A stretch of 64,000 bases of DNA from a virus, in IMG/VR virus record IMGVR_UViG_3300050138_000621, positions 1 through 64,000 of that record. The stretch is one strand, 5' to 3'. The notes beneath the pieces are model-generated. The model saw only the letters and a program-made list of their open reading frames with translations, was not told the DNA's origin and made no database searches. Positions 16,340 to 53,875 of this stretch are shown here, piece by piece; position 1 is the stretch's first letter, and every line of letters starts with the position of its first letter. The position numbers and the translations under genes are program-made.

Positions 16340-16351
16340 CTATAGCGAACG
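16340..16351 (-). promoter_or_regulatory. 12-nt element CGTTCGCTATAG
   Basis: Exact match, 8 nt upstream of ATG 16331. Confidence 0.6.
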
Positions 16352-16375
16352 GGGGCAACGATTATTTGATCAGCC

Positions 16376-18016
16376 TCATGACCCGCAGGACCCCGCTTTG
16401 AACCGGTCGCAGACGTCCACCGACTCGACGAAGATCTGACCGACGTGCTTCTCGGCAGTGGAGTACTTAACTGGGCTCAAAGGCTGCCCTCCACGCGCGC
16501 CGTCCGGATAGCAGGTGATCCCGCGTAGATTTGGGAGGTGTTTGTAGAGCATCTCCCCGAAGCTCCTGACACCCTTGGAGTTGTTGTCGTCGGAGCCCCA
16601 CGCAGGCAGGTTGATTGTCGAGGAAATGCCGTGGTCGACATAGCCTTGCACCCAGGCCTGGAATTGCACCCTCCGATCGACATCAATCGAGTAGGCGTCC
16701 TCGATGGTGTCGGGGTTCACGCCAGAGTCGACCAGGCGCTTCGCGGTGGGATCGAGGACGTACTGGTACGTCATGTCGCTCTTCACCCAGTAGCGACGCT
16801 TGTAGGCGACACAGAAGATCGGCTCGATGCCGGTCGTCGTCTCGGCCACGATCCCGATGGTTCCGGTCGGCGCGATTGCGCGAACCTTTACCGGCGTGCT
16901 GAGTTCCCAGAGCTTCGAGAAGTGAGCTGAGGCCTCGTTGCTGACGTCGCGATAGACCTCCAGCCACGTCCCCAGTTCCTCGTCCGGGCCGTACTTCTTG
17001 CCGCGCTTCAGGAGCCACTCGTGCATGCCCATGAGCCCGAGCCCGAGGCGTCGGTTCTTTGTGCGGATCTGGTCGACCTTGCCGTACGGGACGTCGGAGT
17101 AGACGGTTCCAGCGATGAGGAAGCCAATGGCGTCCCAGACGATGGTGCGGAACTCCTCGATCGTGTTCACGCGTGCGAGATTCACGGACCCGAGGTTGCA
17201 GATGTCCGAGTCGTCGCGGGACGTGATCTCGGTGCAGGCGTTCCGGAGGTCTTCGCCGTCATCCGCACCTACGTTGACACTGAAGCCGGGCTCGCCGGTC
17301 GACAGCATCTGCAGGATGACCTGCCAGTAAACTTTGTGCGCCAGCTCGTGGTTCTTGTTCTTCGAGTTGTCGTAGGCCTTGAAGAAGGCGGTGTCGAGAA
17401 TGACGGAGATGTTCGTCATGTCCATCGGCGCCGATGCGTTCATGTCCTTCAACTTCGCGGCCTTGATGTCGTCGGACCAATCCTTGATATGGATGAACTT
17501 GAACACATCCGGGTGGTTCCAGTGGAGGCCCGCCCAGATCGCGCCACGGCGGTCGCCACCCTGGCGAATGAAACGGCCGACCTCGTTCACTCCTTGCATG
17601 AGCGAGATGGGGCCCGAGGATACGCCGCCCGTCTTCCGGATCGGGGCGCCCTCGGCGCGAAGGTCGCTGTACACGCCGCCGATGCCGGCGCCGGTCATGA
17701 GTGCCATCATCGAGTTGTGGACGTGCTGAGCCCAACCTTCGCGCGAGTCCTGCGCTCTCATGAGCAAGCAGTTCTGGACCTGATGGAACGGACGCCCGGT
17801 GGCGTAGAGGTATCGACCGCCAGGCATGAACGTCTTGGCTACGATGTGTCCCTGGACCGCGCTGACCAGCTCTTTGGGGGCGTCGACCGCCTTCAGGACG
17901 TTCTTGGCGACCCGGTGTCCGAGTACGTCCCAGGTCTCTTTGCTGCCATCTTGCAGGGTGTGCGCGTACTTCGCGTTGAGGGTCGTCAACGCGAACTTGG
18001 ACATGTCACTTTTCAT
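16376..18016 (-). CDS. nrdJ: ribonucleotide reductase, class II (B12-dependent) type
   Basis: 546 aa. Contains NCLLM, GGDRRGA, CTEI...CNLGSVNL and PTGTIGI...TTGIEPIF blocks characteristic of the RNR catalytic barrel. No separate beta-subunit gene nearby. Confidence 0.7.
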   Translation of the reverse strand: MKSDMSKFALTTLNAKYAHTLQDGSKETWDVLGHRVAKNVLKAVDAPKELVSAVQGHIVAKTFMPGGRYLYATGRPFHQVQNCLLMRAQDSREGWAQHVHNSMMALMTGAGIGGVYSDLRAEGAPIRKTGGVSSGPISLMQGVNEVGRFIRQGGDRRGAIWAGLHWNHPDVFKFIHIKDWSDDIKAAKLKDMNASAPMDMTNISVILDTAFFKAYDNSKNKNHELAHKVYWQVILQMLSTGEPGFSVNVGADDGEDLRNACTEITSRDDSDICNLGSVNLARVNTIEEFRTIVWDAIGFLIAGTVYSDVPYGKVDQIRTKNRRLGLGLMGMHEWLLKRGKKYGPDEELGTWLEVYRDVSNEASAHFSKLWELSTPVKVRAIAPTGTIGIVAETTTGIEPIFCVAYKRRYWVKSDMTYQYVLDPTAKRLVDSGVNPDTIEDAYSIDVDRRVQFQAWVQGYVDHGISSTINLPAWGSDDNNSKGVRSFGEMLYKHLPNLRGITCYPDGARGGQPLSPVKYSTAEKHVGQIFVESVDVCDRFKAGSCGS

Positions 18017-18630
18017 TGGATCCTCTGAGTGAACGCGCGCCCCATCAAGATCGCGTCGGCAACGTCGTTATCTTTTTGAATCAGCGTCAGACCGTACAGC
18101 TCGTTGGCCATGCGAACAGCAAGGTGTTTCTTGTTCACCTTGCCTTTGATGCCCAGAGTCTTCTTGTCGACCTTCTGACCAGCGGCCTTGGCCGCCTTCG
18201 TTGCCTTCGAGAGCGCGGTATTGGCTTTCTTGTCCTCCTTGCTCATCCACATGCCGACGGCCTTGCGCCACTCCGAAGTGTCCATGTAGATCATCGGGAG
18301 CCTGTTCTGGATGCGTTTGAGAAATGCGAAGTGGATGAACTCAAGAGCACGCTGTGTGTTTCGGTTCTTGCCCTTGTTGGTGTTCTCGGCGACGAGCGCG
18401 TCCACCCCGCCCACGGAGGCGATCAGCTCGTCGATCTGGTCGACCACCTTCTCGGCGGCGGTAACGATGTTGTAGGGGTAGGCTGGCGATTTCTGAGGGT
18501 CTTTGTTCACGTTGAAGTCCGTGATTAGGACCTTTGGGAGTAACCCAGAACGTTCCAGCTTCCCGTCGACAAACAGCGCCCAACCAGTCGATGTGCTGAT
18601 GTCCAAAGAGAGCACACGCGCGGGACTCAT
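18013..18630 (-). CDS. RuvC-like Holliday-junction resolvase
   Basis: VLSLDISTSTGWA (first Asp), ...VAENTN... (Glu), ...NDVADAILMG (terminal Asp pair). CAATCAT lies 9 nt upstream. Confidence 0.65.
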   Translation of the reverse strand: MSPARVLSLDISTSTGWALFVDGKLERSGLLPKVLITDFNVNKDPQKSPAYPYNIVTAAEKVVDQIDELIASVGGVDALVAENTNKGKNRNTQRALEFIHFAFLKRIQNRLPMIYMDTSEWRKAVGMWMSKEDKKANTALSKATKAAKAAGQKVDKKTLGIKGKVNKKHLAVRMANELYGLTLIQKDNDVADAILMGRAFTQRIQ

Positions 18631-18650
18631 CGTCCCCCGATGATTGGGAG

Positions 18651-18914
18651 CTAGGTCTCCAGCTCGTGGATCTCGAACGAGTCGTCGGTCGACATCCCGA
18701 GCACCAACACCTTCGTGTCCTCGCCCAGTGCCAGATCCTCCCTGATACGGCCCTGGATGGGACCGAGGCGCTCGGCGAGTCGATGGTCGTCAGACTTGAA
18801 TACGAGAAAAAGCGTTCGCCTATTCCCGGTCTCGATGACGAACTTCTCCCCGACGAATCCCTCTGCCGACACTTCGGAAGAGGGAAGTCGGACGAGATTG
18901 AGCTTCTTGCTCAC
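18651..18914 (-). CDS. hypothetical protein
   Basis: 87-aa ORF in an operon context. Confidence 0.5.
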   Translation of the reverse strand: MSKKLNLVRLPSSEVSAEGFVGEKFVIETGNRRTLFLVFKSDDHRLAERLGPIQGRIREDLALGEDTKVLVLGMSTDDSFEIHELET

Positions 18915-18920
18915 GATCTA

Positions 18921-19250
18921 CTAGAGCCCCTGCTCGCGCTCGGAGCCGTTCTGGTTCTCCTCGGCGACCTCGTCGGCAACGAACTCGCCCGTGTCCTTGC
19001 CGCCGTCTTCGAGGGCGCGGTGGCAGAAGAGGATGCGAATCTTGTTCATCTTCGTCCCCTCGCGGTAGATGGCACCGGCATCCGAGGCGGCCTGGCGCTT
19101 CTGGATGAGGTCCAGGTCTTCGTCTTTGGCGTTCATCAGGTTCACCTGGTCGAGCGAGACCTTCGCGATCAGGTCGCGAATCCGCTCCTCACTCATCTTG
19201 GCGACGTTGTCCTTGAAGTCGGAGTCGAGTGCGGCGAATGGATCTTTCAT
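18921..19250 (-). CDS. hypothetical acidic protein
   Basis: 109-aa ORF. A 12-mer lies 46 nt upstream, with an AAGGA RBS in between. Confidence 0.6.
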   Translation of the reverse strand: MKDPFAALDSDFKDNVAKMSEERIRDLIAKVSLDQVNLMNAKDEDLDLIQKRQAASDAGAIYREGTKMNKIRILFCHRALEDGGKDTGEFVADEVAEENQNGSEREQGL

Positions 19251-19296: not shown

Positions 19297-19308
19297 CTAT
19301 AGCGAACG
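19297..19308 (-). promoter_or_regulatory. 12-nt element CGTTCGCTATAG
   Basis: Exact match, 46 nt upstream of ATG 19250, 2 nt after upstream stop 19311. Confidence 0.6.
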
Positions 19309-19310
19309 CC

Positions 19311-20093: not shown

Positions 20094-20105
20094 CTATAGC
20101 GAACG
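20094..20105 (-). promoter_or_regulatory. 12-nt element CGTTCGCTATAG
   Basis: Exact match, 7 nt upstream of ATG 20086. Confidence 0.6.
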
Positions 20106-22665: not shown

Positions 22666-22674
22666 GCGGGCTCC

Positions 22675-24458: not shown

Positions 24459-24470
24459 CTATAGCGAACG
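24459..24470 (-). promoter_or_regulatory. 12-nt element CGTTCGCTATAG
   Basis: Exact match, 11 nt (GGAGAGAGCAC) upstream of the groL-like ATG 24447. Confidence 0.6.
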
Positions 24471-26071: not shown

Positions 26072-26083
26072 CTATAGCGAACG
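26072..26083 (-). promoter_or_regulatory. 12-nt element CGTTCGCTATAG
   Basis: Exact match, 73 nt upstream of ATG 25998, directly after hairpin 26084-26098. Confidence 0.6.
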
Positions 26084-26105: not shown

Positions 26106-27026
26106 TTAATAGGGGGCCGGAGCGTCGTCTTCAGGTGCCGCCAGCGAGTCGGGATTGAACGGCCTCTCCTGATCCTGCCAACGTTCGACAATGAACGTGT
26201 AGAGAAACCCAAGGTACGTACGATCTCCTCGGGCCCTGGACGCCTCAACGGCCCAATTGAGCCGCTCCGAAAAGGCGGACCAGTTCTCGGCGTTGATGTG
26301 CTTCGTGAACGCCTTCCGGGCGGTCGTGAGGTTGAACTCCTCGGGGTGCCGTCCGGCGTTCCCCCAAACCTCCCTGGTCACGTTCCACGACGCCTCGGGG
26401 TCGAACGGCCCAAATACCCCCACCTCGCCCTCGGTCTCGGGCGCCGCCGTCACCTCGGGTTCGGATTGTGGATCTTTTTCGGATTTCGACAGGCTGGGGG
26501 GGAGTGCTGACGGGAGAACGGGTGCCGGTTTTTTCTGAGTTGATCTGAGTTGATCTGAGTGGTCATTTTTGTCATTGCCGTCATTTTTCGTCAGCACTGA
26601 AGAATTCTGCGCACTTGGGCCAGCAGCAGCCTCCAGAGCGTTCCGCTCCTGCGTGTCCTTCGCTCGCTTGCGTTCCATGTACTCGCGTTGCCGGCGGGCG
26701 GCGGCCTCGCGCTTCTCGTCTGCCGACTGAGCGTCGCGGTACTTGGCGTGATTCAGGAGTTTCCATCCGCCGTCGACCTCGACCAAACGACGGCCCTCCC
26801 AATCCTTCGTTCGCGACTTGGGATCCGGAGCCGAAAACAGCGCCAGCGCCTTCTCCGTGATCTCCTCGGACACCAATGCGGCCCGAGCGATCCCTTCGCT
26901 ACTCGCGCCGATGTAACCGTCGCGGTCCGCCAGCGCCATGAGGGTGAACCAAACCTTAACGATCTCGGGGCGTTCCTTCCAAACGGTCGAGTAAATGATG
27001 TTCGTGTCCAGCTTCGTGTACGCCAT
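26106..27026 (-). CDS. putative replication initiator / replisome-organizer protein
   Basis: Winged-helix-like N-terminus (FTLMALADRDGYIGAS...GIARAAL), low-complexity linker whose DNA carries phased repeats, positioned next to the helicase gene. Confidence 0.35.
   Translation of the reverse strand: MAYTKLDTNIIYSTVWKERPEIVKVWFTLMALADRDGYIGASSEGIARAALVSEEITEKALALFSAPDPKSRTKDWEGRRLVEVDGGWKLLNHAKYRDAQSADEKREAAARRQREYMERKRAKDTQERNALEAAAGPSAQNSSVLTKNDGNDKNDHSDQLRSTQKKPAPVLPSALPPSLSKSEKDPQSEPEVTAAPETEGEVGVFGPFDPEASWNVTREVWGNAGRHPEEFNLTTARKAFTKHINAENWSAFSERLNWAVEASRARGDRTYLGFLYTFIVERWQDQERPFNPDSLAAPEDDAPAPY
26535..26593. repeat. phased short direct repeats: 3 x CTGAG at 10-bp spacing, then 4 x GTCA at 9/9/10-bp spacing, in a locally AT-richer patch (iteron / origin candidate)
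   Basis: ctgagttgatctgagttgatctgagtggtcatttttgtcattgccgtcatttttcgtca, inside the linker-coding part of 26106..27026. Confidence 0.45.
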
Positions 27027-27096
27027 CTAGTTTGGGGTCCCTTCGTTGCGGTGGACGTCAGCAATGACGTTGTGACGTTAGCAATGGTTGTCAGTC

Positions 27097-27108
27097 CTAT
27101 AGCGAACC
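27097..27108 (-). promoter_or_regulatory. 12-nt element, variant GGTTCGCTATAG
   Basis: 11/12 match, 70 nt upstream of ATG 27026. Divergent partner of 27126. Confidence 0.55.
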
Positions 27109-27125: not shown

Positions 27126-27137
27126 CGTTCGCTATAG
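27126..27137 (+). promoter_or_regulatory. 12-nt element CGTTCGCTATAG
   Basis: Exact match, 10 nt upstream of ATG 27148. Confidence 0.6.
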
Positions 27138-29066: not shown

Positions 29067-30107
29067 ATGAAAACGACCACCGTTGACGAGCATTTTCGCC
29101 AATTCGCCCATTCCGTCGAATTGGGGATCCGACACGTGGGGGCCAAGGACCGTAATGGCCACCAGCTCGACGCGGTAAACACACTCCTCGACCTGGAGGA
29201 CCGGTTCAAGGTCGCGATCCTGCGGTCGAAGCACAAAATCGACGTGTACTCGGCCTTCATCGACCACATCCGCCTCGAACGCCACAACATCCTCGACGCC
29301 CGTCCGTTCTTCCGAGAGCGCAAAGAGACGTTCTCGGACCAGATCAGCGATGCGTTCAAGCAGGAACGCCCGGAAATTCTCTTCAGGTACCGGATCAACT
29401 ACCGATTCGTTACGTTCGTCATGGGGCTCGGCCTGTTCATCCCGACGAGCCGGGTGGCAGTGCTCGCGAAGAAGATCGAAGCCCTCCGACAGGAGCTGGC
29501 GGTCGTCCTGCTTCCCTTGTGCATCAACCGGGCGCGTGTTTTCTACCGCAAGACCCCGAAGGCGCACTTGGCCCACATGGACATGGTCCAGAACGCGTTC
29601 GAGGGCCTGCTCTGCGGGATGGACAAATATTGCCCCGAAGAGGGCCAGCCCATCGACATGGTGGTCTTCCGCTCGACGGTCATCGGCCGCATCTCCGGCA
29701 ACCTGATCTCGGACTACAACCAGACCGCGATCCACTTCTACCCGTTGGAGCGTCGCAAGCTCTACCGCGCCCGCAAGGCGGCCGTCAGGGCGGTCGCCGG
29801 GGGAATGGATTCCGCCCAAATTGCCTCGATCGTGAACGAAGACCTCGGCGCGGAGAACACCGAGCTTCACACCACGGCCTCGGAAATCGCGGAGCTGATG
29901 GCGGCGTCGTCGCCGGTATCGGCGGACAGTGCTCCAATCCAAGATCCCGAGGCAATTGGGCTGCTCGACCGTTACGCAGCGCCGGAGGAAGGGCGACCGG
30001 ATGTGTTGGTTGAGGAAAAGGGCGCGATGTCGTCGTTGGCGAGGGCATTTGCTCAATTGACCCCGTACGAACAGAAATTCATGAGGCTGCGGGGCGTACG
30101 CCTGTAA
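29067..30107 (+). CDS. divergent sigma-70-family factor apparently lacking region 4.2
   Basis: Region-2-like MDMVQNAFEGLLCGMDKYCPEEG...FRSTVIGRISGNLISDY. C-terminus LTPYEQKFMRLRGVRL resembles region 4.1, then stops. Confidence 0.55.
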   Translation: MKTTTVDEHFRQFAHSVELGIRHVGAKDRNGHQLDAVNTLLDLEDRFKVAILRSKHKIDVYSAFIDHIRLERHNILDARPFFRERKETFSDQISDAFKQERPEILFRYRINYRFVTFVMGLGLFIPTSRVAVLAKKIEALRQELAVVLLPLCINRARVFYRKTPKAHLAHMDMVQNAFEGLLCGMDKYCPEEGQPIDMVVFRSTVIGRISGNLISDYNQTAIHFYPLERRKLYRARKAAVRAVAGGMDSAQIASIVNEDLGAENTELHTTASEIAELMAASSPVSADSAPIQDPEAIGLLDRYAAPEEGRPDVLVEEKGAMSSLARAFAQLTPYEQKFMRLRGVRL

Positions 30108-30110
30108 GGG

Positions 30111-30122
30111 CGTTCGCTATAG
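30111..30122 (+). promoter_or_regulatory. 12-nt element CGTTCGCTATAG
   Basis: Exact match, 3 nt after the sigma-gene stop and 45 nt upstream of ATG 30168. Confidence 0.6.
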
Positions 30123-34036: not shown

Positions 34037-34048
34037 CGTTCGCTATAG
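34037..34048 (+). promoter_or_regulatory. 12-nt element CGTTCGCTATAG
   Basis: Exact match, 9 nt upstream of the dnaE ATG 34058. Confidence 0.6.
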
Positions 34049-35842: not shown

Positions 35843-38800
35843 AGATCACGTCGTTGAAGGTCGTCTCGGACGCAGATAGCGGATGGCTCCATCGCAGGTT
35901 CGGGGACCATGTCGCTCAGATCTCGGTCGAGACCAAGATGAAGATGAGGCTCGCAGTCCGCGACGTCTCCAGGCAGCAGCGCGGGTTCGTCACCTCCGAG
36001 ATCGAGACGCTGGCCAAGAAGTTTCCGCAGCCCCCACAGGGAGTGGAGGATCTAGACTTCGTCCTTGGATACGACAACGACGAAGGGCACCAGCAGGGCG
36101 CCATCGAGGTCGATGAGGCGATCCAGGAGTACGTTCGCCTCTACCCCAAGGACTGGGAGATCGTGCAGCAGTGCCTCGGGCTGGCGCGCCAGCGCTCCCG
36201 TCACGCCTGCGCCTACGTCATAGGAAACGAGCCAATCGAGCAGATGATCCCGCTCACCACCGTGGGCGGGGTGCGAGTCACGGCTTACAACGCCCCGGCC
36301 GTCGAGGCTGTTGGCGGGCTCAAGATGGACTTCCTCGTCGTCAACTCGCTGATGGACATCGGCGACTGCATCAAGCTGGTCCAGAAGCGCCATCGGGAGG
36401 TCGAGTACAAGGAGGCCGCGCTCAGCGGGCTTCGCGTGCCCCGGTTCCGCCAAATCCCCATCCCCGGCGGCGGCCTGGCGGACATCTGGAACCTGCCGGA
36501 CGACCAAAACGTGTTCACCGACGTGTCCCAGGGCCGCACGGAGACTGTTTTTCAATTTAATACGGAATCAGCCCGCAAGTGGTTGAAGCACTTCAACTAC
36601 AGGAAGGCCAACGGCAACTACGCGATCGACTCGATCGCGACGATGGCCTACTTCACGGCCCTCGATCGCCCTGGCCCCCTCGACGCGTACGTGTCCAACC
36701 CCGAAGAGGAGGACACCAAGCACAACATGCTCGTCGAGTACGCGCGCCGCGTCCGCGGCGCCCCGAAGAGCCCCGACATCCTGCCGATCTTCGACGAGCT
36801 GCTGCCGCACATGAACGGGATCATGATCACGCAGGAAGCCCTTCAATACATGTACCAGCGCCTCACGGGGTGTTCTGGTCCGGAGGCCGAGGACTTCCGC
36901 TCGAACATAGCGAAAAAGAAGATGGCCAAGGTCGAGAAGGCCTACCTGCCGTTCATCGAGTCCGCAACCAAGACGATCGGCAAAGAGAACGCCGAGGCCG
37001 TGTGGAAGAACTTCATCACCTTCGGCCAGTACGGATTCAATCAATCTATTGATGGAGACACAATCATCTCCACATGCGATGGAACGATGAGGCGACTCCG
37101 GGACTACAACGCGGGCGACAGCGTGAACGCGGTGGACGATCGCGGCAACGCGATCAGCACGGCAGTAATGGCCCTTCACGATCACGGAATGCTGGAGGGG
37201 TTCGAGGCGACGTTCGACGATGGATATTCATTGATCATTTCGTCCGATCACAAATTTCTCACCGCCCAGGGACAAAAGCCGCTGTACGAGATCGTCGCGC
37301 GGGGGATGGAGGTTCTGTCTAGTGGCCGCCAAGCTTATGGATGGATGGACGGCACGTTGCGGGGAGGGGTTCCTAACGAGACGGTCATTGCAGTCTCACC
37401 TGAATCAATGCACGGACTGCATGAACCACCGGGGTATGGGCCGCAAGCCCGACCCTCGCGGATACCTGGTGAGGTGCGGGACGAAGGTCAAGAAAGCGAC
37501 GGACGTAAAAACCCATCAGAGCATTTGCGAACGGTGCTGGGAGATGTTGTGGCGCCGGCCAAACAACGCTGGCTGGGCAGCTCGCTGCGGGCAGATCTGT
37601 CCTGGAAAGAGGGATCGTGCGGAACATCACCGGACGTGCTCAGTGTGCGCGGCGGTGAAGAAAGAAAACATCAAAGTCAGGCAGGCGAAGTTGGCGGCAA
37701 GCCCAGGGTTCCGAGAAATGTGTTCGGAAACGGCCAAGAAAACTTCCATGCGGAGGGACATTCAGCTTCAGCGCGCGGGGAGGCTGAAGGCTTGGAGAGA
37801 CGGCAATCCGGAGAAGTTTCAAGAGATAGTCAAAAAACTGACCCACTCCCCAAAGAACTCGAAGGCGGAGGCATGGCTTCGACAGGAGGGGATCCTAATG
37901 TGGCCAGATGCTCAAATTGTTTGTGGGACGGAGCGGAAGCAGGTGGATTTTGTAAGCCCGGATCACAAAGTGTGGGTGGAGATGGACGGAGGATTCCACT
38001 TCTTCCCTCTGACGAAGGGGAGGAAGGCGACGCCTGCAGAACACCTGGAGTACGTCCAGGGGCGGGACGCGATGCTCAAAATGGAAGCGTTGCGCCGGTC
38101 AGATGTGACATTGATCCGAATATCTTGCGAGTGTTTCAGGGGAAACTCGAAGAGAAAACTGAAAGACGAGTGGCTCGGGACACTTACGCAAATGCTCCAC
38201 TTTCCTCAACCGGGGATTTGGTGCTTAGGCGAATTGTACAAGTCCGTTCTGTGGGCCCAAGACGGATGTACGATCTTGAGGTCTCCCATCCCAAGCACAA
38301 TTTTGTTCTCCCGAACGGAGTGGTCACCTCCAATAGCCACGCCGTCTGCTACTCCGTCATCGGCTACGCCTGCGCCTACCTGAAGCACCACTACCCGCTG
38401 GAATGGTGGACCTCGGTTCTCTCCAACGCCTCGAAGAACGAGGTCTCCGACAAGTTTTGGAAGCATTGCGGGCAGCTCATACGCCTCCCCGACGTCACGA
38501 AGTCCGGGGCGAAGTTCACCATCTCCGGGGAGCACATCCAGGCCCCGCTCAACATCATCAAGGGCGTCGGCGACGGCGCCGACAAGCAGCTCTCGAAGTA
38601 CGCTCCCTACACCGACATTCTCGACTTCTGTCGCAAGATCGAGAAGCACCGCATGGACGGCGGCGGCTACGTCATGAAGACGGTGAAGTACAAGGACAAG
38701 GACAACAAGGTCCTCAATCCCGAGACCGGCCGAATGGTAGCGACCGATGCCATCAAGGAGGAGCGAACGTTCAAACGGGGCCCCAACACTCTCAATGCGG

Positions 38801-39588
38801 GCGTCATCAAGGTGTTGATTGCCTCGGGCGCCATGGACGGCCTCTTCTCCGAGAATGTCCTCCTCGAAGAGCAGATGACGGAATACGAAAAGGCGATGGC
38901 TGCCGCGGAAACCGAGACCAACATAGCAACGGCGCCCGCCGGAAAGACCGTCCGCCCCATTAAGCCCAAGAAGGTGGATCCGAGCGAATTCAACCTGAAT
39001 GCTTTACAGCGGTACCAGTCCCGCAAGGCAGTGTTGCCGATTTACGGAGCCGACCTCATTCCCATGGTGGTCCGCTCGGGCAAAGCCAACGGCCTCAAAC
39101 AGTACCCTGGGCGTGCACTTATGGAGTGGATCTCCCCGTTCAACGGGAAGGAGAGCATCGTCGAGCTGATTGGCGCAGACGCCCTGTCACACGACGAGGA
39201 TTTCATCGTCAAGGACAAGAAATCGGTCAACGTGGCGGTCGCCGCGTACATCGAAGAGGTGGAGATCCGTAAGTACGGGCCGCTGCTAAAAGAAATGGTT
39301 AAGGTCAAGCTCGACGTCGAGGGCGCTCGGTTCGAGTTCGTCAAGTTCTCCGGTAAAACTGGGGTAGTCGCGGACTGTTTCAGGCAGCCGTTGCAGGGCG
39401 CGGTCGCCGTTGTGATCCTCAACAAATGGACCAACGATCGGCCGTTTGGGCCCGAGGACGTGCTCGTTGTGGAGCCACCAATCAACGTGAAGACACCTGA
39501 CCCGGACCCGGCGCCTGCGGACGTCGAGCAAGCTTTGGACAACCGGCAACCATCGGATGAGGTCGATTGGACCGGGCGTTCGCTATAG
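35839..39588 (+). CDS. dnaE: DNA polymerase III alpha (DnaE) C-terminal fragment, interrupted by an intein
   Basis: ATG 35839 inside ORF 35491..39588. FGDHVAQISVETKMKMRLAVRDVSR, RHACAYVIG, GGLKMDFLVVNSL, FGQYGFNQ[intein]SHAVCYSVIGYACAYLKHHYP. Confidence 0.8.
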   Translation: MKITSLKVVSDADSGWLHRRFGDHVAQISVETKMKMRLAVRDVSRQQRGFVTSEIETLAKKFPQPPQGVEDLDFVLGYDNDEGHQQGAIEVDEAIQEYVRLYPKDWEIVQQCLGLARQRSRHACAYVIGNEPIEQMIPLTTVGGVRVTAYNAPAVEAVGGLKMDFLVVNSLMDIGDCIKLVQKRHREVEYKEAALSGLRVPRFRQIPIPGGGLADIWNLPDDQNVFTDVSQGRTETVFQFNTESARKWLKHFNYRKANGNYAIDSIATMAYFTALDRPGPLDAYVSNPEEEDTKHNMLVEYARRVRGAPKSPDILPIFDELLPHMNGIMITQEALQYMYQRLTGCSGPEAEDFRSNIAKKKMAKVEKAYLPFIESATKTIGKENAEAVWKNFITFGQYGFNQSIDGDTIISTCDGTMRRLRDYNAGDSVNAVDDRGNAISTAVMALHDHGMLEGFEATFDDGYSLIISSDHKFLTAQGQKPLYEIVARGMEVLSSGRQAYGWMDGTLRGGVPNETVIAVSPESMHGLHEPPGYGPQARPSRIPGEVRDEGQESDGRKNPSEHLRTVLGDVVAPAKQRWLGSSLRADLSWKEGSCGTSPDVLSVRGGEERKHQSQAGEVGGKPRVPRNVFGNGQENFHAEGHSASARGEAEGLERRQSGEVSRDSQKTDPLPKELEGGGMASTGGDPNVARCSNCLWDGAEAGGFCKPGSQSVGGDGRRIPLLPSDEGEEGDACRTPGVRPGAGRDAQNGSVAPVRCDIDPNILRVFQGKLEEKTERRVARDTYANAPLSSTGDLVLRRIVQVRSVGPRRMYDLEVSHPKHNFVLPNGVVTSNSHAVCYSVIGYACAYLKHHYPLEWWTSVLSNASKNEVSDKFWKHCGQLIRLPDVTKSGAKFTISGEHIQAPLNIIKGVGDGADKQLSKYAPYTDILDFCRKIEKHRMDGGGYVMKTVKYKDKDNKVLNPETGRMVATDAIKEERTFKRGPNTLNAGVIKVLIASGAMDGLFSENVLLEEQMTEYEKAMAAAETETNIATAPAGKTVRPIKPKKVDPSEFNLNALQRYQSRKAVLPIYGADLIPMVVRSGKANGLKQYPGRALMEWISPFNGKESIVELIGADALSHDEDFIVKDKKSVNVAVAAYIEEVEIRKYGPLLKEMVKVKLDVEGARFEFVKFSGKTGVVADCFRQPLQGAVAVVILNKWTNDRPFGPEDVLVVEPPINVKTPDPDPAPADVEQALDNRQPSDEVDWTGRSL
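37045..38334 (+). mobile_element. intein (430 aa) in dnaE at the conserved GFNxSH site
   Basis: Starts SIDGDTIIST (block A, Ser1). Block B is IISSDHKFLT. Blocks F/G are RRMYDLEVSHPKHNFVLPNGVVTSN, followed by +1 Ser. The extein junction restores FNQSHA. Confidence 0.75.
37322..38383 (+). CDS. nested endonuclease gene in the +1 frame of the dnaE intein: three Cys/His fingers plus a Vsr/DUF559-like nuclease core
   Basis: 353-aa ORF (ATG at 37337). Three repeats of RCG-x10-13-H-x3-C-x2-C. QVDFVSPDHKVWVEMDGGFHF...GRDAML...LIRIS resembles the DUF559/Vsr fold. The tail beyond ~38200 is probably fortuitous read-on. Confidence 0.55.
   Translation: MAAKLMDGWTARCGEGFLTRRSLQSHLNQCTDCMNHRGMGRKPDPRGYLVRCGTKVKKATDVKTHQSICERCWEMLWRRPNNAGWAARCGQICPGKRDRAEHHRTCSVCAAVKKENIKVRQAKLAASPGFREMCSETAKKTSMRRDIQLQRAGRLKAWRDGNPEKFQEIVKKLTHSPKNSKAEAWLRQEGILMWPDAQIVCGTERKQVDFVSPDHKVWVEMDGGFHFFPLTKGRKATPAEHLEYVQGRDAMLKMEALRRSDVTLIRISCECFRGNSKRKLKDEWLGTLTQMLHFPQPGIWCLGELYKSVLWAQDGCTILRSPIPSTILFSRTEWSPPIATPSATPSSATPAPT
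39577..39588 (+). promoter_or_regulatory. 12-nt element CGTTCGCTATAG
   Basis: Exact match. Its TAG is the dnaE stop. 27 nt upstream of ATG 39616. Confidence 0.6.
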
Positions 39589-39615: not shown

Positions 39616-40500
39616 ATGAAACGACCCCTCAAGACGATCCTCGCCGACATCGCTGACAACGCCGAGACCATGGCGCGAGATCTAGATGCCCTTCCCCCGA
39701 GCGTCCGTCCGGGTCACCAGGGTGCCATCCGCCGTGCGCAGGAGGCGGCCCCAGCGCTGCTACAGGAGTACCGAGAGGCGGTCCTGGCCAACTCTCTGGC
39801 CTTCTTCGTGTCGGGAGGAGCGGATGGAGCGCCCATGCAGTTCGCGGAGATCGCTTACGACGAGGGCGCCTTGCCAGCCGACTTCGGAGCGATGTACGCC
39901 GCCCTGGCGGACCAGCTCGGACCCCTCATGGGCAAATCTGTGGATTTCGGGATGGACCAGGTCGTTCGTTTGGATTTCCTTCTCCGGGGCATCGCCACCA
40001 CGTCTGGATTCGGACGCGCCGTCGATCTGCCGCGAACCGCGGCGACCTACGCGGTCAAGGGCAAGCGGGCGCTCACCGACCACATCCGGAAGCTCGCCGA
40101 GACGACGACCGACGGGGCAAAACTGAACCTCCTCGTCACGACCAAGAAGCTGATCGAGGCGGCGGTGTCGCATCGGTTCGCGCGCAAGACATTCAAGGTC
40201 GTGGTCATCAACGCCAGCGCCGCCGACCGGAAGCTCTTGGAGGCCCTGTTCACTCGGAGCGTGACGGTCGACCTGACTGACGTAGAGACGATCGATGTGG
40301 GTTTCGTTGTTGGCGCTTTCAAACGGGCCCACAACGAAACGCCTCCGGCGCCCCCCGAGTGTGCCGCCGCCAGCTCCCAACGCAACAACGTAGGGGCGTT
40401 CGCTATAGGTAGTGTGAACCAACAACGCAACGAGCCAAGTAACGGAGAAATGAATGAGCAACGTTTTCGGTACCCCCAAGTTCGGCAATTCAGGCGGTGA
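39616..40500 (+). CDS. hypothetical protein
   Basis: 294-aa ORF. A 12-mer lies 27 nt upstream. The 3' end overlaps the next 12-mer and the next start, so the true C-terminus is uncertain. Confidence 0.55.
   Translation: MKRPLKTILADIADNAETMARDLDALPPSVRPGHQGAIRRAQEAAPALLQEYREAVLANSLAFFVSGGADGAPMQFAEIAYDEGALPADFGAMYAALADQLGPLMGKSVDFGMDQVVRLDFLLRGIATTSGFGRAVDLPRTAATYAVKGKRALTDHIRKLAETTTDGAKLNLLVTTKKLIEAAVSHRFARKTFKVVVINASAADRKLLEALFTRSVTVDLTDVETIDVGFVVGAFKRAHNETPPAPPECAAASSQRNNVGAFAIGSVNQQRNEPSNGEMNEQRFRYPQVRQFRR
40397..40408 (+). promoter_or_regulatory. 12-nt element CGTTCGCTATAG
   Basis: Exact match, 45 nt upstream of ATG 40454. Lies in the 3' end of ORF 39616..40500. Confidence 0.6.
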
Positions 40501-45493: not shown

Positions 45494-45697
45494 GTGATTC
45501 TGCTCCGTTAGGTGTTTGGGGCGGGGAGACGGACTTTACTCTCGTCCTTAAAGAGTAACGCTGCTTACAGTTCCGAAGATACTGGACCGGGGATAACCTG
45601 ACAAGATCTTTTCGTCACAACGTTACGTTTTCCGCCACGACGTGACATTTCGTGGTTACCATCCGGTCCTGAATTTTTGATCACCATCCTGATCCGC
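45494..45697 (-). promoter_or_regulatory. 204-nt untranslated, lower-GC, structured leader or small RNA downstream of a 12-mer
   Basis: Long-range helix GGACCGG..TAACC (45584-45598) pairs with GGTTA..CCGGTCC (45654-45669). Hairpin TTACTCT (45536-45542) / AGAGTAA (45552-45558). No credible ORF. Confidence 0.35.
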
Positions 45698-45709
45698 CTA
45701 TAGCGAACG
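45698..45709 (-). promoter_or_regulatory. 12-nt element CGTTCGCTATAG
   Basis: Exact match, 204 nt upstream of ATG 45493. Divergent partner of 45720, 10 nt apart. Confidence 0.6.
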
Positions 45710-45719
45710 CCTCGAACCC

Positions 45720-45731
45720 CGTTCGCTATAG
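45720..45731 (+). promoter_or_regulatory. 12-nt element CGTTCGCTATAG
   Basis: Exact match, 7 nt upstream of the clpP-like ATG 45739. Confidence 0.6.
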
Positions 45732-45738
45732 GACCTGT

Positions 45739-47494: not shown

Positions 47495-47998
47495 GTGGAG
47501 ATTCGGCTCACCCAGGGGCAAGCCGCGGTCGTTGACGACGACGACGCCGACCTGGCGACGTCGAGGTGGTACGCATGGAAGGTCAAGTACGGCAAGACGT
47601 TCTACGCCGTCCGCAACGTGCGAAAGCCAGACGGCAAGCGGACGACAGAGCGCCTCCACCAGGTCATTGCCGGTCGCATGTGCATTGCGGGAGTCCCTGA
47701 CCACATAGACCGAAATGGCCTGAACAATCGTCGAGACAACCTGCGCCCTGCCAACGATTCTCAGAACCAAGCAAACCAGTCGCTCCAGACCAACAATACC
47801 AGCGGCTTCAAGGGAGTTTGCTGGGGCACGCGCGACGGCAAGTGGATGGCCTACATCACCGTTAGCCGCAAGAGGCGCTACCTCGGCGTCTTTGGCGACC
47901 CGATCGAAGCCGCGAGGGCCTACGACCGCGCGGCCGAGGAGGCGTTCGGCGAGTTCGCATTCCTGAACTTCCCCGACGCACAGCAGCGTTCGCTATAG
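47495..47998 (+). CDS. HNH endonuclease with AP2 DNA-binding domain (homing-endonuclease type)
   Basis: HIDRNGLNNRRDNLR (HNH) and SGFKGV...GKWMAYI...LGVF...EAARAYDRAA..FGEFAFLNF (AP2). The stop codon is the TAG of a 12-mer. Confidence 0.75.
   Translation: MEIRLTQGQAAVVDDDDADLATSRWYAWKVKYGKTFYAVRNVRKPDGKRTTERLHQVIAGRMCIAGVPDHIDRNGLNNRRDNLRPANDSQNQANQSLQTNNTSGFKGVCWGTRDGKWMAYITVSRKRRYLGVFGDPIEAARAYDRAAEEAFGEFAFLNFPDAQQRSL
47987..47998 (+). promoter_or_regulatory. 12-nt element CGTTCGCTATAG
   Basis: Exact match. Its TAG is the stop of the HNH-AP2 gene. 6 nt upstream of ATG 48005. Confidence 0.6.
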
Positions 47999-48562: not shown

Positions 48563-48574
48563 CGTTCGCTATAG
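48563..48574 (+). promoter_or_regulatory. 12-nt element CGTTCGCTATAG
   Basis: Exact match, 7 nt upstream of ATG 48582. Confidence 0.6.
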
Positions 48575-50524: not shown

Positions 50525-50694
50525 TCGTCTTCGACCTCATCAGGTCCCCGCGGTTCTTTCCTGGGATCATTATCGCGCTGCAAGCCTGCGCGGCGATTCG
50601 CTGGGGCTTCGCCGGCAGCGCCTGGAATATGTTCTATTGGGCCTTCGCCGTTGGTCTCAATACGATCGTTACGTTCGGAAAGCTGGGGCAGTAG
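50521..50694 (+). CDS. small hydrophobic protein (about 2 TM segments)
   Basis: ATG 50521 (ATGA overlap) gives MIVFDLIRSPRFFPGIIIALQACAAIRWGFAGSAWNMFYWAFAVGLNTIVTFGKLGQ. Confidence 0.45.
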   Translation: MIVFDLIRSPRFFPGIIIALQACAAIRWGFAGSAWNMFYWAFAVGLNTIVTFGKLGQ

Positions 50695-50703
50695 GATAGT
50701 AGG

Positions 50704-52020
50704 ATGTCGATCTCGACGATGAACAAGCCTGGCCAGGTGGTGCCGGTCAAGCTGTGGACAGAGCTGCACGAGGTTGAGTCCGAGGCCCTGGACCAGCTGG
50801 AGAAGGTCGCCAGCCTGCCGTGGGCTTTCCACCACGTCGCCGTCATGCCCGACGTCCACTATGGCAAAGGCGCTACCGTAGGCTCGGTCATCGCCATGAA
50901 GAACGCGCTGGCGCCGGCGGCGGTTGGTGTCGACATCGGCTGCGGCATGGGTGCCATCAAGACCTCGTTGAAAGCGTCAGACCTTCCCGACAATCTGGAA
51001 GCGATCCGCACATCGATCGAGGCGGCAATCCCCGTCGGCTTCATGTCTCACGAGGAGCCGCCGATCACGGGCTCGTCCGCTGAGGCCATCAAGCGCGCTG
51101 GAGCCAAACTGTTCTCGGAATTCAGCGGCCTGACGCCTAAAGTCCAAGACCTTCTCGGGCGTGCGCGTCGCCAAGTCGGGACGCTGGGCGGCGGCAACCA
51201 CTTCATCGAGATATGCCTGGACGACAGGAAATGTCCGAACTGTGAAAACGGATCTGGGTACACCCGACACCTCGGGATGGACAACGATGAGGTGGTCGAG
51301 GACTGCAAGAACCACCAGGAAGATCCGCAGGTCTGGCTGATGCTCCACAGCGGCAGCCGCAACATCGGCAAAGAGCTGGCCGAGTTCCACATCGGCATCG
51401 CCAAGAAGCTCCTCCACAATCAGGAGCTGCCCGATCGCGACCTCGCCGTCTTCCTGTCGGGAACATCGGAGATGGAGGCCTACCGCAACGACCTGTTCTG
51501 GGCGCAGCGGTACGCGTTCTTAAACCGCAGGGTCATGTTCGAGCTGTTCAAGGAGGTGGTCAGGAACGCCTTCCCGTACCACACCGCTGGCGAGCCCGAT
51601 CTGGTGTTCTTCGATGAGCCCATCCTCTGCCATCACAACTACGTCAGCGAGGAAACCCACTTCGGCGAAGGCGTGATCGTGACCCGCAAGGGCGCCATCC
51701 GCGCAGGCGTCGGAGAGATGGGGATCATCCCGGGCTCGATGGGCACCAAGAGCTACATCGTGCGCGGCCTCGGCAATCCGGAGTCGTTCTCCAGCGCGAG
51801 CCACGGGGCTGGCCGCCGCATGTCCCGAACCAAGGCCCGGAAGACGTTCACGCTCGACGACCTCGCGGCTCAGACTTCGGGCGTGTGCTGCCGCAAGGAC
51901 CGTGAAGTAATCGACGAGATCCCGGGCGCCTACAAGTCGATTGAGCAGGTGATGTCGAACCAGGCCGACCTCGTCGAGGTCGTGGCGACTCTCAAGCAGG
52001 TTCTATGCGTCAAAGGATGA
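50704..52020 (+). CDS. rtcB: RtcB RNA ligase (3'-phosphate/5'-OH)
   Basis: PDVHYGKGATVGSV, DIGCGM, GGGNHFIE, HSGSRNIG, CHHNY, PGSMGTKSY, SASHGAGR, all in canonical order. Confidence 0.85.
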   Translation: MSISTMNKPGQVVPVKLWTELHEVESEALDQLEKVASLPWAFHHVAVMPDVHYGKGATVGSVIAMKNALAPAAVGVDIGCGMGAIKTSLKASDLPDNLEAIRTSIEAAIPVGFMSHEEPPITGSSAEAIKRAGAKLFSEFSGLTPKVQDLLGRARRQVGTLGGGNHFIEICLDDRKCPNCENGSGYTRHLGMDNDEVVEDCKNHQEDPQVWLMLHSGSRNIGKELAEFHIGIAKKLLHNQELPDRDLAVFLSGTSEMEAYRNDLFWAQRYAFLNRRVMFELFKEVVRNAFPYHTAGEPDLVFFDEPILCHHNYVSEETHFGEGVIVTRKGAIRAGVGEMGIIPGSMGTKSYIVRGLGNPESFSSASHGAGRRMSRTKARKTFTLDDLAAQTSGVCCRKDREVIDEIPGAYKSIEQVMSNQADLVEVVATLKQVLCVKG

Positions 52021-52028
52021 GCCCGCAG

Positions 52029-52040
52029 CGTTCGCTATAG
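52029..52040 (+). promoter_or_regulatory. 12-nt element CGTTCGCTATAG
   Basis: Exact match, 7 nt upstream of the dut ATG 52048. Confidence 0.6.
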
Positions 52041-52047
52041 GATCAGC

Positions 52048-52921: not shown

Positions 52922-53287
52922 ATGCCCGAAACGCAATTTGAAGTGGTCACCAGGAGCAACCCCTTAACGGCCGTGAAGCTTAAGATCGAGAGCCTGATAG
53001 CATCCAGGCTGGGGATTTTGCACTGCGAAGCGTCAGACCTGGCTGCCGACATGGAGGCGCTGATCGGGCGCCTTCGTAGCAGGGGCCACAAGGCCAAGGT
53101 CGACGACCTCAAAGCTGGCAGATGGTACAGAACGGCCTCGGACCTCCGTCTTCTACAGGAGCTGTACACGTTCGTCTGCGATGTGGGCGGCGTAGATGAG
53201 TCGCCGATCGAAATGGAGATCATGGACGCCGAGAGCGGGCCCTCCGAGATCCAAGACGAGGTCACGGAGTCGCACAGGTTCCGGTGA
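52922..53287 (+). CDS. hypothetical protein
   Basis: ATG 52922 (MPETQFEVV...) in ORF 52724..53287. Confidence 0.5.
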   Translation: MPETQFEVVTRSNPLTAVKLKIESLIASRLGILHCEASDLAADMEALIGRLRSRGHKAKVDDLKAGRWYRTASDLRLLQELYTFVCDVGGVDESPIEMEIMDAESGPSEIQDEVTESHRFR

Positions 53288-53288
53288 G

Positions 53289-53300
53289 CGTTCGCTATAG
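53289..53300 (+). promoter_or_regulatory. 12-nt element CGTTCGCTATAG
   Basis: Exact match, 6 nt upstream of GTG 53307. Confidence 0.6.
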
Positions 53301-53306
53301 AGATGC

Positions 53307-53861
53307 GTGGGACAGCTTCTACGCCTCTGGGTTGACGATGAGCGACCGGCGCCCGAGGGTTGGTTTCACGTAAAAACGGCGCGGGACGCCATCGACGTCC
53401 TGAGCACTCAGGAGGTTCACGAGCTGTCGCTCGACCACGACCTCGGGCACTGCGAGAAGTGCGTCGGCTGTAAGGGGTACAAATCGAAGTGCGGGTGCCA
53501 GTGCCACTGGTCCGGGTACTCGGTCGCCCTCTTCATGTCGACCACCGGGCGCTGGCCCGAGAAGAAGCCGACCTGCCACAGCGCCAACCCCGCCGGCAAG
53601 GCGAACATCGAGGCGACGATCCATCGCTACTTCGGGCAAAAGCTCGCGGCGTCGACGGGCGAGTTCCGGCTGACGTGGAAGGAGCTGGAGATCTCCAAGC
53701 GGTTCACCACACGGCACGTCATTCGCCATCGCAAGGAAAAGAAGACAGCGATCGGAGGCCGGTTCACCTACAGCTTCACGCCGACGAGTCTCGGCGAGAT
53801 CGCGGCCATCCGTTGCGCGTGCGGCAAGAAGAAGACGCTCACCGACTTCTCGGACTGGTAG
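53307..53861 (+). CDS. hypothetical protein; N-terminal domain resembles the phage 'cyclic-phosphate processing receiver'-type domain (WxDDxR...DHDLG)
   Basis: LWVDDERPAPEGW...AIDVL...ELSLDHDLG, followed by a Cys-rich insert. GTG lies 6 nt after a 12-mer. Confidence 0.4.
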   Translation: MGQLLRLWVDDERPAPEGWFHVKTARDAIDVLSTQEVHELSLDHDLGHCEKCVGCKGYKSKCGCQCHWSGYSVALFMSTTGRWPEKKPTCHSANPAGKANIEATIHRYFGQKLAASTGEFRLTWKELEISKRFTTRHVIRHRKEKKTAIGGRFTYSFTPTSLGEIAAIRCACGKKKTLTDFSDW

Positions 53862-53863
53862 GG

Positions 53864-53875
53864 CGTTCGCTATAG
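53864..53875 (+). promoter_or_regulatory. 12-nt element CGTTCGCTATAG
   Basis: Exact match, 6 nt upstream of GTG 53882. Confidence 0.6.

Follow-up and report, generated by a model that had tools for sequence, protein, structure and literature searches.

The 12-nt element CGTTCGCTATAG recurs throughout the non-structural genes of a 64,000-nt stretch of viral DNA (positions 1–64,000 of IMG/VR record IMGVR_UViG_3300050138_000621, referred to herein as the window), which belongs to a large phage genome of lytic type, with 62% GC. An initial annotation of this DNA proposed that the element is a phage promoter lacking a -35 block and giving rise to leaderless or nearly leaderless mRNAs. In silico, this proposal is supported by the invariance of the element, by a modal distance of 7 nt to the start codon, and by the way in which Shine-Dalgarno (SD) sequences are divided between genes close to the element and genes further from it. 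As judged from the sequence, it is fairly probable that CGTTCGCTATAG(R), where R is a purine, acts as a promoter that needs no -35 and is used by the bacterial multisubunit RNA polymerase with a sigma-70-family factor, with transcription starting approximately 7 nt past the element.

In the mechanism that we propose, TATAGR would occupy the position of the -10 hexamer (-12 to -7) and CGTTCGC would be a lineage-specific upstream extension (-19 to -13) in place of a -35 contact. Transcription would begin at position 20, counted from the first base of the element, which at most copies is the A of the ATG, and the resulting leaderless mRNA would be translated without an SD sequence. A spacer of 8–11 nt would leave a leader of 1–4 nt, while at other copies the same promoter would produce a leader of 27–204 nt with a normal SD. 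The element would in this manner provide an internal promoter of its own for almost every non-structural gene or short operon, including those for replication and nucleotide metabolism and the small genes of relatives. The reader that we favour, by a small margin, would be a sigma factor encoded by the phage itself (29067–30107), acting in a self-reinforcing loop.

The element is tied to the starts of non-structural genes

Searching both strands of the window, we recovered 17 exact copies of CGTTCGCTATAG and one copy with a single mismatch, for a total of 18. With up to two mismatches allowed there were 21 matches, as compared with 2.86 ± 1.80 in dinucleotide-preserving shuffles, none of which (0/100) reached 21. 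The 7-mer GCTATAG occurs 18 times against an expectation of 0.83, in every case within the element. All 18 copies share the orientation of the gene that follows (p = 3.8e-6). The gene model of the window was assembled from open reading frames (ORFs) with a biased GC content at third codon positions (GC3), and 15 of the 18 copies are wholly intergenic despite a non-coding share in this model of 5.4%. Two copies form the final 12 nt of the preceding ORF, where the TAG of the element is the stop codon (39588 and 47998). The copy at 40397 falls within the 3′ tail of the longest ORF call, 39616–40500; the orthologous ORF in the closest relative, of 82% identity, stops 5 nt ahead of the element.

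Distances from the element to the start codon are bimodal, with 11 genes at 6–11 nt. On the minus strand these short spacers follow the copies at 16340..16351 (8 nt to ATG 16331, encoding a 111-aa protein followed by the Mre11-like and terminase block), 20094..20105 (7 nt to ATG 20086; the orthologous copy in the relative L061 is identical at 12/12 positions) and 24459..24470 (11 nt, ggagagagcac, to ATG 24447 of a GroEL-like chaperonin). On the plus strand they follow 27126..27137 (10 nt to ATG 27148, the first gene of an operon of helicase, small ORF and sigma), 34037..34048 (9 nt to ATG 34058 of the N-terminal ORF of DNA polymerase III alpha, PolIII), 45720..45731 (7 nt to ATG 45739 of a ClpP-like protease), 47987..47998 (6 nt to ATG 48005, the TAG being the stop of an HNH endonuclease ORF), 48563..48574 (7 nt, actgatc, to ATG 48582), 52029..52040 (7 nt to ATG 52048 of dUTPase), 53289..53300 (6 nt to GTG 53307) and 53864..53875 (6 nt to GTG 53882).

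The other seven genes lie 27, 45, 45, 46, 70, 73 and 204 nt from their copies. Those on the minus strand are at 19297..19308 (46-nt leader with AAGGA to ATG 19250; also with an orthologous copy in L061), 26072..26083 (73-nt leader with AGGAG to ATG 25998 of a DnaB-like helicase, with a C6/G6 hairpin directly upstream), 27097..27108 (the one-mismatch copy GGTTCGCTATAG, 70-nt leader to ATG 27026) and 45698..45709 (204 nt to ATG 45493). Those on the plus strand are at 30111..30122 (3 nt past the sigma stop codon, with a 45-nt leader bearing AAGGA to ATG 30168), 39577..39588 (its TAG the stop of the PolIII ORF, with a 27-nt leader bearing AAGGA to ATG 39616) and 40397..40408 (45-nt leader with GGAGA to ATG 40454).

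A GGAG, AGGA or AAGG core is present in 7/7 of the long leaders. Among the short spacers, a plausibly positioned GGAG is found solely at 24447; three others show AGGA merely by TATAG running into GA or GTAAGGA, which is too near the ATG for an SD role. The mean anti-SD duplex energy is -3.3 kcal/mol for the short-spacer genes versus -6.0 kcal/mol for other genes. Two pairs of copies, 27097/27126 (17-nt gap) and 45698/45720 (10-nt gap), stand back to back where the coding strand flips. Of the features described in the initial annotation, the 18 copies, their uniform orientation, both divergent pairs, the two classes of spacer, the restriction of SD sequences to the long class apart from 24447, and the double use of TAG as a stop codon were each recovered here.

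In the leader at 27030–27096, which belongs to the minus-strand gene 26106–27026, two direct repeats CATTGCT(A/G)ACGTC lie between the element and the start codon, and ACGT-rich repeats are also present in the 245-nt region 45494–45738; these may be regulator binding sites.

The genes behind the element include those for helicases, PolIII, GroEL, dUTPase and ClpP; virion genes carry CAATCAT instead. The initial annotation held that no copy occurs in the structural arms. This stands for exact copies, of which we found none in 1–16.3 kb or 54–64 kb, but not for degenerate ones, as a 19th copy, GGTTCGCTATAA, is present at 4829–4840 on the plus strand.

The element and its spacing are conserved in relatives

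We scanned IMG/VR with GGCGTTCGCTATAG and obtained four multi-copy contigs (~70–88% nucleotide identity), which together with the window make five genomes with 87 distinct copies of the element. A contig of 96 kb is syntenic with the window at ~82% identity and one of 43 kb is ~67–84% identical to it; a 30-kb contig aligns over ~450 nt only, at roughly 70% identity, and a 16-kb contig has no alignment to the window longer than 400 nt.

Over the 87 copies, positions 1–12 are essentially invariant, position 13 is a purine in 86, and a weaker consensus, RYAGATC, covers positions 13–19. Upstream of the element nothing is conserved beyond -3, and the information content is ~0 bits from -40 to -6. 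The absence of a -35-like block, claimed initially for the copies of the window, extends to all 87: such a block is outright absent and not merely weak. The gaps of just 10 and 17 nt between the back-to-back copies agree with this. In ten orthologous alignments the element is identical at 120/120 positions, as compared with 78% identity in the 30 nt upstream, 70% in the 7-nt spacer and 77% in the first 60 coding nt.

The positional bias seen in the window holds in the relatives as well. A start codon stands exactly 7 nt downstream of the element in 46/87 copies (44 ATG, 2 GTG), at 6 nt in 8 copies and at 8–9 nt in 7, and nearly all of the ATGs at the 7-nt mode open ORFs of 50–780 codons. ATG is the start in 61 of the 71 copies with a proximal start. 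With a modal spacer of 7 nt, TATAG begins 12 nt ahead of the A of the ATG; this distance is found in 46/87 copies, and one of 11–14 nt in 15 more. With A9 of the element set as -11, position 19 (-1) is a pyrimidine in 72% of copies and position 20 (+1) a purine in 77%, being A in 59/87. Among the 16 long-leader copies, position 20 is A in 8 and G in 2, and several keep AGATCA without a following ATG. Since 10/16 of these copies have a purine at position 20, several of them within AGATCA, the alignment suggests that this position is special in its own right, beyond any effect of the start codon.

Canonical sigma-70 promoters are at or below chance in the window, and intrinsic terminators are likewise not enriched. 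No conserved RNA structure was found around the element (mean z = -0.13 over 78 contexts).

Comparison with the relatives also revealed insertions at or near the element. In L061, the 82% relative, a 45-nt insertion comprising an element and an SD-bearing leader separates GroEL from the next small gene. The window has no such insertion at the corresponding site, 22666–22674, where AAGGAG alone is kept, and this indel would be an example of promoter gain or loss. The RtcB gene (50704–52020; region 50525–52047) is an insertion relative to two relatives, the junction of which coincides exactly with the upstream edge of the 52029 copy; RtcB itself is not preceded by an element. In the relatives, the element precedes arrays of small early-type genes.

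Exact 14-mer scans of metagenomes and bacterial genomes gave mostly single chance matches among those listed, together with additional phage fragments (L117, L177, L178 and L194), and scans for the lineage-specific 14-mers ATTCGCTATATCCT and CGTTCGCTATCAAT gave chance matches only. In the bacterial genomes, no locus among the matches listed has more than one copy of the 12-mer. As regards a cellular promoter family, the bacterial stretches among the matches listed each had one 14-mer match and no second copy of the 12-mer.

A canonical promoter variant and the motifs of distant relatives place TATA at -10

The degenerate copy at 4829–4840 lies within a predicted canonical promoter at 4813..4848. 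Its layout over 4813–4851 is TTGACA (4813–4818), 17 nt, TATAAA (4836–4841), 7 nt and ATG 4849, and it is the sole canonical sigma-70-type promoter linked to a gene start in the window. The 82% relative (L211) retains TATAAA, the -35 hexamer and the 17-nt interval between them; ahead of the shared GTTCGC block, that interval differs at 3 positions. On this layout, the 4829 site reads as a canonical sigma-70 promoter, and because it has TTGACA 17 nt ahead of TATAAA, the TATA block of the element would sit at the -10 position. The gene behind it, 4849–5550, encodes a 233-aa protein (PHROG 6452, unknown function) and may be an immediate-early gene.

A megablast of 8 kb gave no match among GenBank phages, in which the window has no close nucleotide relative. 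Similarity to Myxococcus phage Mx1 exists at the protein level only: PolIII is 47% identical, and the 169.6-kb Mx1 genome has the same gene set. We fetched seven loci around sigma factors that are 33–50% identical to the window sigma. Each has its own repeated word before the helicase, before GroEL and before the gene that follows sigma. The word is CGTTCGC-TATCAA in L087 (sigma 50% identical); CGTT(C/T)GA-TATC(A/G/T)N followed by 7 nt and ATG in L573 (48%), the helicase copy having 10 nt and GTG; GATT(C/T)GC-TATATC followed by 6 nt and ATG in L088 (45%); TTCGT-TATATC with 6 nt and ATG in L574 (45%); GATTAGG-TATAAG with 7 nt and ATG in L575 (40%; 39% GC); GC-TATCAT with 6 nt and ATG in L089 (39%); and CGC-TATAGG or GC-TATATA with 6 nt and ATG in L090 (33%; 46% GC). 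In every one of these lineages some copies have long, SD-bearing leaders instead. Constant across lineages are the TAT at -12 to -10 and its distance to the ATG, whereas -8, -7 and the block further upstream vary. This pattern of a constant TAT and ATG distance with variable flanks is expected of a -10-type promoter and not of a T7-type promoter.

The 233-aa protein was also considered as a universal early factor and rejected, since neither Mx1 nor the fetched 20-kb loci L087–L090 have it. Mx1 has a start-proximal motif of its own, AGATCAAC-N3-4-(G)TA-N10-ATG, in which the T of TAGATC is at -24 from the ATG. Examples (L001–L004) are at 125841(-), 115767(-), 128518(-), 85286(-) and 84523(-), and the motif also follows several tRNA genes; its AGATCA is also the spacer consensus in the window lineage.

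A phage-encoded sigma-70-family protein without region 4.2, and a second motif in the structural arms

The candidate specificity factor for the -35-less class is a 346-aa sigma-70-family protein encoded at 29067..30107 on the plus strand, with regions 2, 3 and 4.1 but not region 4.2. It is 35% identical to an Mx1 protein annotated as a putative sigma factor. Pfam and PHROG returned no match for it, and the NCBIfam sigma-70 models gave sub-threshold matches only, ending at position 129/165 and 186/224. A profile of its 33-member family matched RpoD/SigA chains in the PDB with E = 1e-7, aligning profile positions 137–339 of 342 with RpoD residues 374–568 of 617. The end of the phage protein, LRLKGV, aligns with LRMRFG of sigma-70. 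The helix-turn-helix of sigma-70 region 4.2, which reads the -35 hexamer, begins just past this point.

Structure prediction agrees with the profile alignment. An AlphaFold (AF2) model with a predicted local distance difference test (pLDDT) score of 83 has only two helices after the region 3–4 linker, and in a Foldseek search the top 50 matches were all primary sigma (SigA) chains in holoenzyme or initiation complexes. The template-modelling (TM) scores of these matches were low, ~0.4, as would be expected for a multi-domain protein. In the hidden Markov model (HMM) alignment, the region 2.3/2.4 tryptophan pair aligns with non-aromatic residues in the phage sigma. We found 81 homologs in public data, many on contigs of 150–180 kb and the largest contig being 181 kb. 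A profile search detected no second sigma paralog in the window, Mx1 or any of the relatives, and Pfam, PHROGs and NCBIfam revealed no separate region 4.2 or other transcription factor among the small neighbouring ORFs. This truncated-sigma architecture appears to be uncharacterised. A sigma factor without region 4.2 fits a -35-less promoter.

The structural arms have a start-proximal motif of their own, CAATCAT. Nine of its 10 copies in the window are 6–12 nt upstream of, and co-oriented with, the starts of structural-arm genes: 2018–2024(+), 4790–4796(-), 10506–10512(-), 18640–18646(-), 54724–54730(-), 55325–55331(-), 56127–56133(-), 57164–57170(-) and 60771–60777(-). In relatives and in Mx1, the corresponding genes (portal-proximal gene, baseplate, tail and head) have CAATCTT. 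Both A-11 and T-7 are present in the hexamer AATCAT/AATCTT, and the motif probably represents a late promoter class.

Which factor reads the element

As the phage sigma lacks region 4.2 and the operon that contains its gene is headed by a copy of the element, we consider it the candidate reader in a self-reinforcing loop. Depending on the lineage, the base at -7 is R, C, A or G instead of the near-universal T, which points to a co-evolving phage reader rather than host SigA. AATCAT/AATCTT keeps the A-11 and T-7 that every primary sigma needs, whereas the element class has no T-7 and varies there by lineage, which speaks for the phage sigma as the reader of CGTTCGCTATAG. By a small margin, these sequence features favour an assignment of the phage sigma to the element over its assignment to the late motif.

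It is possible, although we consider it doubtful, that the promoter and its leaderless output are as proposed but that the reader is the host primary sigma holoenzyme, either unaided or under the influence of a phage factor that prevents it from recognising the -35, as with gp39 of P23-45. The phage sigma would then read CAATCAT/CAATCTT, as T4 gp55 reads late promoters. The sigma gene is always in the element-driven helicase operon and, in relatives and Mx1, lies immediately upstream of the Mre11-terminase-portal module. Only one sigma homolog was found per genome for two motif classes, and CAATCTT is nearly invariant across Mx1 and across sigmas of 33–50% identity, as for a conserved sigma-promoter pair. 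Since the element precedes small early-type genes in relatives, its reader must be present at the start of infection. A precedent exists in P23-45, whose middle and late promoters are of the extended -10 type and are read by the host holoenzyme (PMC7403470). Host recognition is nevertheless hard to reconcile with TATAGR, TATATC and TATCAA, which are without the T-7 needed by primary sigmas, such that AATCAT/AATCTT looks the more host-like. Moreover, nothing equivalent to the conserved TTCGN extension is known among host extended -10 promoters, and this extension persists in phages of 39–65% GC, presumably with different hosts, and no bacterial stretch carries a second copy of the 12-mer among the matches listed.

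Several points weigh against our favoured reading, that of a -35-independent promoter read by the phage sigma. Sigma-70-type factors normally require T at -7, which TATAGR does not provide: -7 is a purine in 86/87 copies and C, A, G or T in other lineages, while T-12, A-11, T-10 and A-9 are invariant. Nor is there a TGn extended -10, as positions -15 to -13 read CGC, which agrees with it at the G of -14 alone. The start position is inferred from spacing only, and the position-13 purine would also fit a +2 preference with a start at the G of TATAG. If the 5′ end were further upstream, the spacer AGATC could act as a mini SD, being complementary to GAUC in the 3′ tail of 16S rRNA. The sigma gene is part of an element-driven operon and in relatives stands directly upstream of the late module, and service of CAATCAT/CAATCTT in the manner of T4 gp55 fits this arrangement equally well. 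Finally, the motif was itself the query with which the relatives were found, and the numbers of copies in them are therefore a biased sample.

More tentatively, we suggest that Mx1-like phages may have two classes of promoter without a -35: non-structural genes would have TTCGN-TATnnn and virion genes GCAATCTT/CAATCAT, both at a fixed 6–7 nt from start codons, with most mRNAs leaderless. In this scheme, a new kind of sigma factor composed of regions 2, 3 and 4.1 might read a contiguous 13-bp word through regions 2 and 3, the -7 base having co-evolved with the lineage, and leaderless translation could be a general strategy of takeover outside the Thermus phages.

Alternative functions of the element

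An improbable alternative is that the element acts on RNA, either as an SD-independent signal for translation initiation, akin to the start-associated sequence (SAS) of Cluster K mycobacteriophages, or as an endoribonuclease site at which polycistronic transcripts are cut just before the AUG. The distribution of the element does resemble that of the SAS: it is asymmetric, linked to ATG, a few nt from the starts of non-structural genes, and sometimes includes an upstream stop codon. Many copies are inside operons and, because terminators are not enriched, would be transcribed by read-through, and AGAUC ahead of the AUG is complementary to the GAUC of 16S rRNA. The element itself, however, holds no SD core and is not accompanied by a conserved RNA structure (the mean z of -0.13 over 78 contexts reported above). 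The seven copies that are 27–204 nt from a start, each with its own SD, cannot be start-codon signals. In addition, the divergent pairs exactly at the coding-strand flips behave as promoters would, the 4829 variant has a conserved -35 at 17 nt, and the conserved part of the element is an AT-rich TATA at -10 distance.

We regard it as still less probable that the element serves as promoter to a T7-like, single-subunit RNA polymerase that the phage encodes beyond the window, in which case transcription would start at the G of TATAG and leave leaders of 7–12 nt. Resemblance to T7-group promoters had been pointed out in the initial annotation. The T7-group promoter core is ...CACTATAGGGAGA, and CTATAG followed by a purine, common to both, corresponds to positions -5 to +2 of the T7, SP6 and K11 promoters. 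Position 13 is a purine in 86/87 copies, an invariance as extreme as that of the element is typical of promoters for single-subunit polymerases, and ~100 kb of the genome lies beyond the window. The likeness does not survive closer comparison, however. The conserved block is only 12–13 nt long and ends 11 nt upstream of the G, rather than spanning ~20–23 nt (-17 to +6). The supposed +1 G is T, C or A in distant relatives (as in TATATC and TATCAA), even as the TATA-to-ATG distance is kept, and the fixed 8-nt leader would be left without explanation. Pfam detected no RNA_pol domain in any large ORF of the window, and the annotation of the complete Mx1 genome lists no polymerase other than the sigma. 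The large ORFs of the relatives, whose translations were read by eye without a profile search, resemble helicases, methylases, AAA ATPases and tail proteins.

The least probable of the alternatives is that a DNA-binding regulator of the phage binds the element, as an operator or in the manner of a stoperator, and thereby blocks or modulates transcription, as at the asymmetric 13-bp sites of Cluster A phages; many identical asymmetric sites in short intergenic gaps, with an orientation perfectly tied to the direction of transcription, are what defines stoperators, but the window proteins scanned include no repressor or integrase domain, the sole cultured relative, Mx1, is a virulent myovirus, neither the fixed 7-nt distance to the ATG nor the -10-like TATA would be expected, exact sites are missing from the structural operons, and, because canonical promoters are at or below chance, a 38-kb block would be left without a candidate promoter. 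Readings as a sigma-54 (GG-N10-GC) or extracytoplasmic function (ECF; -35 GGAAC) promoter were rejected on spacing and on the absence of an upstream block.

Gene content of the window and related observations

The window encodes DNA polymerase III alpha (with an intein), DnaB-like and superfamily 2 (SF2) helicases, a primase-like Toprim protein, RecA-like and SbcC-like proteins, and an Mre11-like phosphoesterase. Its other genes include those for a class II-like ribonucleotide reductase, dUTPase, RtcB, ClpP-like and GroEL-like proteins, a portal, a kelch-repeat protein and an intein-bearing terminase-like protein. Rfam matched no family over the whole window, and in tRNA scans the elements were not placed ahead of tRNA genes. 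Promoters and motifs go unmentioned both in the announcement of the Mx1 genome and in a 2026 preprint on myxobacterial viruses, and the 12-mer CGTTCGCTATAG was not found in the searchable literature.

PolIII alpha is encoded by two ORFs, 34058–35842 and 35839–39588, which overlap by ATGA, with the break within the DNA_pol3_alpha domain; the second carries an intein at approximately residues 441–831, and Mx1 PolIII is a single ORF of 1289 aa. The two-ORF arrangement could reflect a frameshift, a genuinely split gene or an additional intervening element. The 1024-aa ORF 10527–13601, which occupies the place of the terminase large subunit, has a Hint/LAGLIDADG intein, where relatives have intein-free proteins of 635–650 aa. 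The 807-aa virion-module protein encoded at 2360–4783 has a GGDEF-like (nucleotide cyclase) domain that is kept in L087, and its Mx1 counterpart is annotated as 'nucleotide cyclase'. ARAGORN called a 94-nt tRNA-Ile(GAT) at 1465–1558 (+), inside the minus-strand ORF 1436–1924; its length is unusual and the call may be false. A 701-aa minus-strand ORF in the relative L068 is apparently a Dam-like adenine methylase with an intein, as judged from its translation and a DPPY motif. The spacer consensus AGATC contains GATC, and the predicted promoters may be methylated.

If the favoured reading is correct, the element offers a ready-made promoter map for an almost unstudied group of phages of 150–180 kb, of which Mx1 is the sole cultured member, and fixes the true start codons of dozens of genes. 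It would also supply a compact 20-bp cassette that joins the starts of transcription and translation without a ribosome-binding site. The lineages would form a natural set of sigma-promoter pairs with differing -10 hexamers and upstream extensions, useful for understanding how regions 2 and 3 read DNA without region 4.2. Systematic leaderless expression in phages would extend beyond the Thermus phages.

Comparison with known systems

In the Thermus phages phiYS40 and P23-45, it is the host SigA holoenzyme that reads the promoters, which have a canonical TG-extended -10 with T at -7. Like the phage described here, these are large lytic phages whose middle and late promoters have no -35. [quoted passage not shown] The element differs from both in its CGTTCGC extension, its purine at -7 and its invariance over 12 nt, and in its setting, an Mx1-related lineage with a truncated sigma of its own.

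A cellular counterpart exists in the signal of leaderless genes, a TA-like -10 sequence ~12 nt before the start codon (PMC3160421). Such genes occur in 8/33 deltaproteobacterial genomes, averaging ~16% of the genes in those eight (PMC3160421), and the '-10 region adjacent to ORFs' of Deinococcus, at the same ~12-nt distance, has been verified experimentally (PMC12340547). At cellular leaderless genes the -10 alone suffices, and expression rises when a -35 is added at 17 nt (PMC3160421, PMC12340547). The signal of Deinococcus-Thermus, Actinobacteria and some Deltaproteobacteria shares with the element a first T ~12 nt upstream of the start and the lack of an SD, but it is a degenerate TANNNT used by the housekeeping sigma, whereas here a 12-nt invariant word without the final T is particular to a phage lineage.

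T4 late promoters, TATAAATA, consist of a short -10-region element without a -35 and are read by the host core polymerase with gp55, which lacks a -35-binding domain and whose gene is expressed from an earlier promoter class. The combination of such an element with a phage sigma lacking the -35-binding domain is common to T4 and to the system proposed here. The T4 late motif serves structural genes, however, whereas the element serves replication and other non-structural genes, the structural genes carrying CAATCAT instead. T4 late mRNAs have SD-bearing leaders, unlike the short-spacer genes of the window, and gp55 corresponds to the region-2-like part only, whereas the phage sigma keeps regions 2, 3 and 4.1.

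Among repeated phage motifs, the Cluster K SAS is an invariant, asymmetric 13-mer with ~10–20 copies at non-structural genes, 3–7 nt from their starts; it is strongly associated with ATG, may include an upstream stop codon, and its function has never been shown (PMC3203893). The element is SAS-like in being asymmetric, in one orientation, a few nt from the ATG and restricted to non-structural genes. As the initial annotation had recognised, the SAS contains a ribosome-binding site and the element does not: GGGATAGGAGCCC holds an AGGAG core at the ribosome-binding position, whereas the 12-mer has no SD core and instead has a -10-like TATA. The element, unlike the SAS, also occurs 27–204 nt from starts. 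Cluster A stoperators are likewise identical, asymmetric 13-mers, present in more than 20 copies in short intergenic gaps with an orientation tied to transcription (PMC9283540), but differ from the element in being repressor sites of temperate phages that are found in all operons at no fixed distance from a start. The T7-group promoters share the CTATAG-purine core, but only 12 nt are conserved here, the core G is lost in distant relatives while the TATA-to-ATG distance is kept, and no polymerase gene was found in the window or in the Mx1 annotation.

Promoters without a -35 that abut the start codon and yield leaderless phage mRNAs are already known, as are phage sigma factors that read a single -10-region element. 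New here are the 12-nt invariant word, its non-canonical -7 base and the TTCGN extension. Also new are a sigma family with regions 2, 3 and 4.1 minus region 4.2, and a phage group in which two such promoter classes appear to organise the genome as a whole.

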